The position numbers and the translations under genes were made by a program. This document shows positions 653 to 1,212 of a stretch of 64,000 nt of DNA, piece by piece; within the stretch, counting starts at the first letter, position 1; each line of letters starts with the position of its first letter. The stretch is from Escherichia coli (GTDB taxonomy: Bacteria > Pseudomonadota > Gammaproteobacteria > Enterobacterales > Enterobacteriaceae). The stretch lies in NCBI RefSeq assembly GCF_003019035.1, contig NZ_CP027447.1; one strand, 5' to 3'. The notes below the pieces were generated by a model that saw only the letters and a list, made by a program, of their open reading frames with translations, was not told the DNA's origin and made no database searches.

Positions 653-748
653 GGATAATATTGCAGATCGTAAGAGTATGAGATGATCTTGCGTACTGTC
701 AGAGCACTGATTTCTCTGACAGTACGTGCTGCGTGCAAAATCACTACA

Positions 749-844
749 TCAAATAAACCAGCCAAATCTCATAGAGATAAGAGTAAACAAACCAACAGCA
801 GCAAAGACATTTATCAGTACTACAGTTCTACTGGAAACATTCAT
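749..844 (-). CDS. yncL: small membrane protein, 31 aa (MNVSSRTVVLINVFAAVGLFTLISMRFGWFI)
   Basis: Hand translation of the reverse strand; ATG is the reverse complement of 842..844, stop is the reverse complement of 749..751; below the ORF-track size cutoff; matches my recollection of YncL. Confidence 0.6.
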   Translation of the reverse strand: MNVSSRTVVLINVFAAVGLFTLISMRFGWFI

Positions 845-1038
845 TTTTGCCACCTTTTATCATTGCCCCTATGTGTATAGTACGGGTTAAGAAAATCCGC
901 AATAATACTCATTCTGAAGATGGATAAGGGCAAGTTGCTGTTTGATGATTTTTTCTCAAACGGGTGAAAAAACTTGATGCACGTCAAAAAATGACGCATA
1001 TTTGCGCGCGTTTTATTCATCTGGCTGGACGCCCGTAC

Positions 1039-1212
1039 ATGTCTCTCTATCAACACATGCTTGTTTTTTATGCGGTTATGGCAGCAATCGCATTTCTTAT
1101 CACCTGGTTTCTTTCTCACGATAAGAAACGCATCCGTCTCTTAAGCGCCTTTCTGGTGGGGGCAACATGGCCGATGAGTTTCCCGGTGGCGCTGTTATTT
1201 TCACTGTTTTAA
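1039..1212 (+). CDS. ortT: small hydrophobic orphan toxin-like membrane protein, 57 aa
   Basis: Internal ATG of track ORF 964..1212; product MSLYQHMLVFYAVMAAIAFLITW... matches my recollection of YdcX/OrtT. Confidence 0.6.
   Translation: MSLYQHMLVFYAVMAAIAFLITWFLSHDKKRIRLLSAFLVGATWPMSFPVALLFSLF

Follow-up and report, generated by a model that had tools for sequence, protein, structure and literature searches.

Two divergent small-protein genes, yncL and ortT, in the patD–ydcY interval of Escherichia coli

Introduction

Among described systems, the closest to the small toxin OrtT (YdcX) is the type V GhoT/GhoS system, the toxin of which, GhoT (b4559), is a paralogue of OrtT from the same Pfam family (PF10753); both proteins have two hydrophobic segments with a basic loop between them. 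OrtT has been described as a protein of 57 aa, 63% identical to GhoT, that damages the inner membrane and lowers both ATP and growth, and stringent-response induction of its gene has been reported (Islam, Benedik & Wood 2015, PMC4344625). No cognate antitoxin was found for OrtT in that study, and GhoS does not neutralize it (PMC4344625). A further small toxin with which OrtT invites comparison is TisB (b4618), of type I, since according to the literature both are small hydrophobic inner-membrane peptides that lower membrane potential and ATP. TisB is, however, a protein of 29 aa with one helix, against the 57 aa and two hydrophobic segments of OrtT, and tisB is paired with the antisense RNA IstR, whereas flanking intergenic RNA did not neutralize OrtT in the published tests (PMC4344625).

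For YncL, the product of the gene divergent from ortT, the functional analogue in the literature is YohP, a sigma-S-induced small membrane protein of 27 aa. Both are induced by stress or in stationary phase and are sigma-S dependent in Salmonella, and early production of either leads to sublethal depolarization and nucleoid condensation; yohP is nevertheless a separate gene at a separate locus, and the likeness is drawn here from published function. Overproduction of YncL depolarizes the membrane in part, and its early production causes a partial loss of membrane potential together with condensation of the nucleoid (PMC12542507). YncL is also among the in vivo substrates of the protease RseP (PMC10470546). 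Expression of the Salmonella gene, known there as yncL or STnc1110, is sigma-S dependent, and a SELEX peak of the RpoS holoenzyme is located in the yncL/ydcX spacer (PMC5493296). Here we describe how these two genes are laid out in one E. coli genome, which reading frames and start codons are supported by comparison across the Enterobacteriaceae, and what conserved elements surround them.

Methods

The window referred to throughout is the whole 64,000-nucleotide stretch of E. coli DNA that was analysed, and coordinates are window coordinates unless stated otherwise; locus coordinates of E. coli strain SCU-301 were converted to window coordinates by subtracting 901. Eighty ortT-containing loci were fetched, one genome per species, so that comparison with the window covered 81 Enterobacteriaceae loci. 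Homologues of YncL were sought by tblastn on the fetched ortT loci; the yncL-bearing sequences number 26 (25 loci plus the window), and 25 distinct 96-nt sequences entered the substitution analysis. Gene identities, reading frames, start codons and patterns of selection were read directly from these data, and for membrane effects, sigma-S dependence and FNR binding we rely on the literature.

Results and Discussion

Gene content and annotation of the locus

Bases 1–2700 of the window carry the 3′ end of patD (stop codon at 650–652) followed by yncL, ortT, ydcY, ydcZ and mnaT. Positions 600–1600 are 100% identical to E. coli strain SCU-301, and the region is found in 5404 of 5426 complete E. 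coli genomes at a threshold of at least 95% identity and at least 80% query coverage; in each E. coli record among the matches listed, the matched segment carries annotations of both yncL and ortT. The RefSeq/PGAP annotation of SCU-301 has yncL at locus positions 1650–1745 on the minus strand and ortT at 1940–2113 on the plus strand, equivalent to window positions 749–844 and 1039–1212, respectively, and the gene models of K-12 MG1655 are identical (yncL, b4598, 96 nt; ortT, b1445, 174 nt). The K-12 genes are clearly the same genes as those of the window: b4598 lies on the same strand between patD and ortT, its product differing from YncL of the window by strain-level substitutions alone, and b1445 encodes 57 aa between the same neighbours. 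OrtT of K-12 differs from that of other strains at few residues, its database relatives are 96–100% identical, and the designation ‘orphan toxin OrtT’ is used in all E. coli listed.

A mechanical list of open reading frames presents the same stretch differently, with a 65-aa ATG-started frame at 683..880 (+), an 82-aa GTG-started frame at 964..1212 (+), and the yncL frame solely as a 34-aa GTG-started frame at 749..853 (−). The first-pass annotation, which worked from the sequence and this list, had pointed out that the 65-aa frame lies on the strand opposite to yncL, as is indeed the case, and had regarded both small genes as missed or mis-started. That description is apt for the mechanical track and not for the public annotation: RefSeq already has correct models of yncL and ortT, both of which have been the subject of experiments, and the present analysis adds no new gene content. 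Comparison across the 81 Enterobacteriaceae loci, a check that had been recommended with the original observation, confirmed both gene calls. We put at about 95% the probability that positions 650–1300 hold yncL, starting at ATG 844, and ortT, starting at ATG 1039, with the 65-aa and 82-aa frames as by-products of mechanical listing; the patD–ydcY interval would then consist of two divergent small-protein genes, both of them already annotated. The case has value for quality control, in that very small genes are lost or given wrong starts in tracks of longest reading frames, and the correct gene models are recovered when codon-position conservation is combined with inspection of ribosome-binding sites.

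Coding evidence for yncL

Translation of positions 749..844 on the minus strand gives the 31 residues MNVSSRTVVLINVFAAVGLFTLISMRFGWFI followed by a stop codon. The product is a small, hydrophobic membrane protein (GRAVY 1.39) of the single-pass type, with one hydrophobic core between R6 and R26 in the hydropathy profile, and its score with the NCBIfam equivalog NF000537 (‘stress response membrane protein YncL’) is 72.5 bits, the cutoff being 35, with residues 1–30 corresponding to model positions 1–30 of 30. The hydrophobic 31-aa YncL proposed for this position at first pass is therefore borne out by its translation, by identical RefSeq coordinates and by its family match. An intact, ATG-started yncL frame was present in all 26 yncL-bearing sequences and encodes 31 aa in each of them except one, where the product is of 30 aa. 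Across the 25 distinct sequences there are 9, 6 and 27 variable sites at first, second and third codon positions, respectively, with a mean pS of 0.47, a mean pN of 0.08 and a pN/pS of 0.17. The yncL frame is under purifying selection, and yncL is thus a real coding gene.

The gene was first catalogued in Salmonella as a small RNA, it is listed as an RNA partner in a RIL-seq-based analysis, and its short transcript probably ends at a conserved hairpin, features that favour a transcript whose main role is that of a regulatory small RNA (STnc1110 in Salmonella) and in which the reading frame is incidental or secondary. We consider this very unlikely, given that the substitutions are protein-like not only in their pN/pS but also in their distribution, with 27 of 31 third positions variable compared with 6 of 31 second positions, that the Shine-Dalgarno sequence is conserved, and that, in published work, a translational lacZ fusion to yncL is expressed and the YncL protein gives membrane phenotypes. 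A scan of positions 550–1650 against Rfam at E ≤ 1 returned no family, i.e. no curated small-RNA model over yncL/STnc1110 or the ortT leader. The yncL transcript may have an additional role at the RNA level, over and above its role as the message for YncL.

The hairpin in question occupies positions 692..726 (−), between the convergent 3′ ends of patD and yncL, so that it is 3′ of yncL and, on the other strand, also 3′ of patD. Its 13-bp stem and 9-nt loop fold as RNA with an energy of -31.3 kcal/mol (z = -3.8). The stem shows compensatory changes across genera, both sides having changed in 8 of its 13 pairs with 81.6% of cells paired, and none of 500 shuffles reached the observed covariation score. 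Neither strand carries a U-tract, and the hairpin is therefore not a canonical intrinsic terminator; it is probably a transcript-end or stabilizing element. The stem-loop stays 3′ of yncL even in loci that have no adjacent patD.

Family and start codon of ortT

Positions 1039..1212 of the plus strand translate into a protein of 57 aa followed by a stop codon. Hydropathy analysis places its two hydrophobic segments at residues ~6–27 and 34–57, with the basic loop D28-K-K-R-I-R33 between them. The protein scores 97.4 bits against Pfam PF10753 (Toxin_GhoT_OrtT; cutoff 22.1), with profile positions 1–55 of 55 aligned to residues 4–57, and 37 of its 57 residues (65%) are identical to those of MG1655 GhoT in an alignment of residues 1–57 with residues 1–57 that requires no gaps. 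Translation, RefSeq annotation, family profile and GhoT alignment all identify it as the GhoT/OrtT-family, membrane-damaging orphan toxin OrtT, and family scores of the size obtained for YncL and OrtT place the two gene calls far beyond chance. The genetic setting of the two paralogues differs, however: ghoT immediately follows the antitoxin gene ghoS, whereas ortT has yncL and ydcY as its neighbours and no GhoS homologue was found in the 64-kb window (best tblastn E value 1.1), which agrees with the published ‘orphan’ status of OrtT.

OrtT had been called TisB-like in the first-pass annotation. As a loose functional analogy between small membrane-damaging toxins the term can stand, but it does not extend to the sequence: BLASTP produced no alignment of OrtT with K-12 TisB at E ≤ 100, and the TisB family was absent among the Pfam hits of OrtT at E ≤ 1. 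Judged by its sequence, OrtT is a member of the GhoT/OrtT family and is not TisB-like by descent. One residue of this family has featured in earlier work, the substitution F38R having been used in the study of OrtT and GhoT (PMC4344625). Phe38 of OrtT is not invariant in our alignment of orthologues, where F, V, A or I is found, so that it may be a hydrophobic residue that matters at this position, rather than Phe specifically.

All 82 sequences compared retain the start codon ATG 1039, and the resulting protein is 57 aa every time. Upstream of it there is no comparable constancy: the open in-frame stretch is between 0 and 64 codons long in the 82 sequences, a stop codon immediately precedes the ATG in six loci, 18 of the 82 loci have no alternative in-frame start upstream, and GTG 964, which lies 25 codons upstream of the ATG, occurs in E. 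coli only. The preference expressed at first pass for the internal ATG over the GTG of the 82-aa frame is therefore well founded. ATG 1039 has a weak ribosome-binding site, GGA, located 9 nt upstream. For near-identical E. coli OrtT proteins, the lengths called in databases run from 57 to 97 aa, a scatter that we attribute to arbitrary choice among upstream starts.

It might still be argued that E. coli makes a longer OrtT, from GTG 964 (82 aa) or ATG 991 (73 aa), instead of or besides the 57-aa protein; no stop interrupts the 82-aa frame in E. coli, so that a minor, lineage-specific long form is formally compatible with conservation alone, and automatic gene callers have predicted OrtT of 64 to 97 aa in this species. 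This is highly improbable in view of what the additional 25 codons contain. They encode a hydrophilic stretch that falls outside both the Pfam profile and the GhoT alignment, and they are not conserved, other genera having stops and frame shifts in addition to lacking the GTG. The alignment of positions 964–1038 has indels of 1–2 nt and displays conserved non-coding blocks instead of a codon-periodic pattern, and neither of the starts at 964 and 991 is preceded by a Shine-Dalgarno sequence. Since these positions hold promoter-like conserved blocks and an FNR box, they probably lie upstream of the transcription start. Conservation thus argues that the segment 964..1038 (+) is a spurious N-terminal extension, that it in fact represents the promoter and 5′ leader of ortT, and that GTG 964 would be absent from the ortT mRNA. 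A published ATG-to-ACG change in ortT abolished toxicity, but the clone was a plasmid carrying the 57-aa reading frame, so that experiment did not cover the upstream GTG (PMC4344625); in the main texts of the literature searched, no initiation-site profiling mentioning ortT was found. On the preferred model, OrtT would be translated from ATG 1039 as a protein of 57 aa with two hydrophobic segments.

Start codon of yncL and the antisense reading frame

The minus strand leading into the yncL start reads AAGGTGGCAAAA-ATG and contains a Shine-Dalgarno sequence, AAGGTGG, at positions 850..856 (−), 5 nt before the ATG. Inspection of ribosome-binding sites, as had been advised, showed that 25 of 26 sequences preserve AGGTGG ahead of the yncL ATG, at a distance of 5–6 nt. 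The Shine-Dalgarno sequence includes the GTG at 853..851 from which the mechanical list begins the yncL frame. Translation of a 34-aa YncL from this GTG, as also found in some Salmonella annotations (the gene STM14_1932 is annotated from the corresponding GTG), is in frame in the window, but is barely credible: the codon forms the core of the conserved AAGGTGG; in three Escherichia loci a 1-nt insertion in the leader shifts it out of frame, while the ATG-started frame is still intact there; the NF000537 model begins at the ATG-encoded methionine; and the Salmonella authors themselves prefer the downstream start. YncL would be translated from ATG 844, with AAGGTGG as its ribosome-binding site.

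The proposition that the 65-aa frame at 683..880 (+), the longest ATG-started frame that the mechanical list offers on this stretch, is the real gene and yncL a chance antisense frame is almost certainly wrong and has been refuted by conservation. Within the yncL overlap alone, stop codons interrupt the 65-aa frame in 7 of 25 orthologous sequences and its pN/pS is 1.24, and its flanks bring additional stops and frame shifts. Its predicted product is hydrophilic and of low complexity, neither it nor an overlapping 54-aa plus-strand frame has a match in Pfam or NCBIfam, and the strand opposite matches a curated equivalog, YncL, for which detection of the protein and experimental work have been published. 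The first codon positions of the 65-aa frame fall on the third positions of yncL, which are the most variable, and a real gene on this strand could not tolerate the variation observed; the 65-aa frame is therefore an antisense shadow of yncL and not a gene. Conservation in favour of the 65-aa frame had been named at the outset as the finding that would overturn yncL, and the comparison came out the opposite way.

Predicted promoters and the FNR box

In this section the exact promoters, the positions at which transcription starts and the way in which FNR acts are predictions. Together with the covarying 3′ hairpin, the elements described, namely the FNR box with its deep conservation and the predicted sigma-S-type promoter of yncL, are modest additions to the biology of YncL and OrtT. 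The predicted yncL promoter occupies positions 874..902 (−) and consists of TTGCGG (902..897), a 17-nt spacer and (C)TATACA (880/879..874), its hexamers falling within the conserved blocks 875–881 and 898–904. The CTATACA form, with C at -13, is typical of sigma-S promoters. We infer from sequence and conservation that the yncL promoter is of the sigma-S type, which agrees with the published sigma-S dependence of the gene in Salmonella and with the RpoS SELEX peak mentioned above. Transcription of yncL would probably start from this promoter, some 25 nt upstream, with a predicted start at about position 867 (−), and end at the conserved hairpin, and YncL would be a sigma-S/stress-induced single-pass peptide of the inner membrane.

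Upstream of ortT, the elements TTGATG (974–979) and CATATT (997–1002), separated by a 17-nt spacer, are followed by a GC-rich discriminator, GCGCGCG (1004–1010), and we take positions 974..1010 (+) to be a candidate sigma-70-like core promoter on the evidence of their conserved blocks; ortT transcription would then be predicted to start at about position 1009 (+). The block 996–1010, GCATAT(T)TGCGCGCG, hardly varies from genus to genus and includes a short inverted repeat, CGCA…TGCG; it can be read as the -10 element and discriminator of ortT, but may be the site of a second regulator. Such a GC-rich discriminator is unexpected in view of the reported stringent-response induction of ortT. A consensus-based promoter and terminator scan returned no more hits than in shuffled sequence and missed both of the conserved promoters; the ‘terminator-like’ sites that it placed at 1070–1093 and 1011–994 were disregarded, as they lie within the ortT coding sequence or leader.

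The region also holds an FNR-box palindrome, TTGATGCACGTCAA (974–987), which overlaps the -35 element and spacer of the predicted ortT promoter and has one mismatch to the FNR consensus TTGAT-N4-ATCAA. A single occurrence of such a box in the window is not significant by itself, but an FNR palindrome with at most two mismatches is present 61–67 nt from the ortT ATG in 80 of 81 loci, representing ~25 genera, and is perfect in 38 of them, whereas only ~10% of shuffled controls reach the level of two mismatches or fewer. The published FNR ChIP-chip target list for K-12 includes an identical 24-mer at ydcX (PMC1802558), and ydcX was up 11.85-fold in a NO/nitrate transcriptome of strain CFT073 (PMC5320621). 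FNR binding at this site in E. coli has accordingly been published already; all that would be new is its deep conservation, the repression logic that it implies and the pairing with yncL. The position of the site over the ortT core promoter suggests that FNR would act as a repressor. We also considered FNR as a class II activator of ortT, with the site at -41.5, which is less likely: the -10 element would then fall at about 1010–1015, where conservation is poor, and the conserved GCATATTGCGCGCG block would be left unexplained.

Distribution of the gene pair

A yncL gene, upstream of ortT and divergent from it, is present in Escherichia, Salmonella, Citrobacter, Intestinirhabdus and one unclassified isolate, the divergent pair being retained in 26 sequences. 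The two genes stay together, ~190 bp apart, even where the upstream neighbour is not patD. In Enterobacter, Kosakonia, Lelliottia, Leclercia, Pantoea and others ortT is present but yncL is not, and in the genera that lack yncL no small hydrophobic reading frame recurs in the position divergent from ortT. As ortT is thus found in many genera with neither yncL nor a substitute, YncL is not an obligate partner of OrtT; an interplay of the two proteins is possible. It is tempting to go further and to propose that the ‘orphan’ ortT is held in check at its promoter, by FNR, instead of by an antitoxin, and is a toxin released by oxygen or NO and paired with YncL. We regard this as unlikely on present evidence. 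Were it true, OrtT would be an oxygen- or nitric-oxide-released membrane toxin, and the Escherichia/Salmonella/Citrobacter lineage would have fixed a divergent pair composed of OrtT and a depolarizing, sigma-S-driven YncL. On the other side of the pair, ydcY is the next gene after ortT in Escherichia only.
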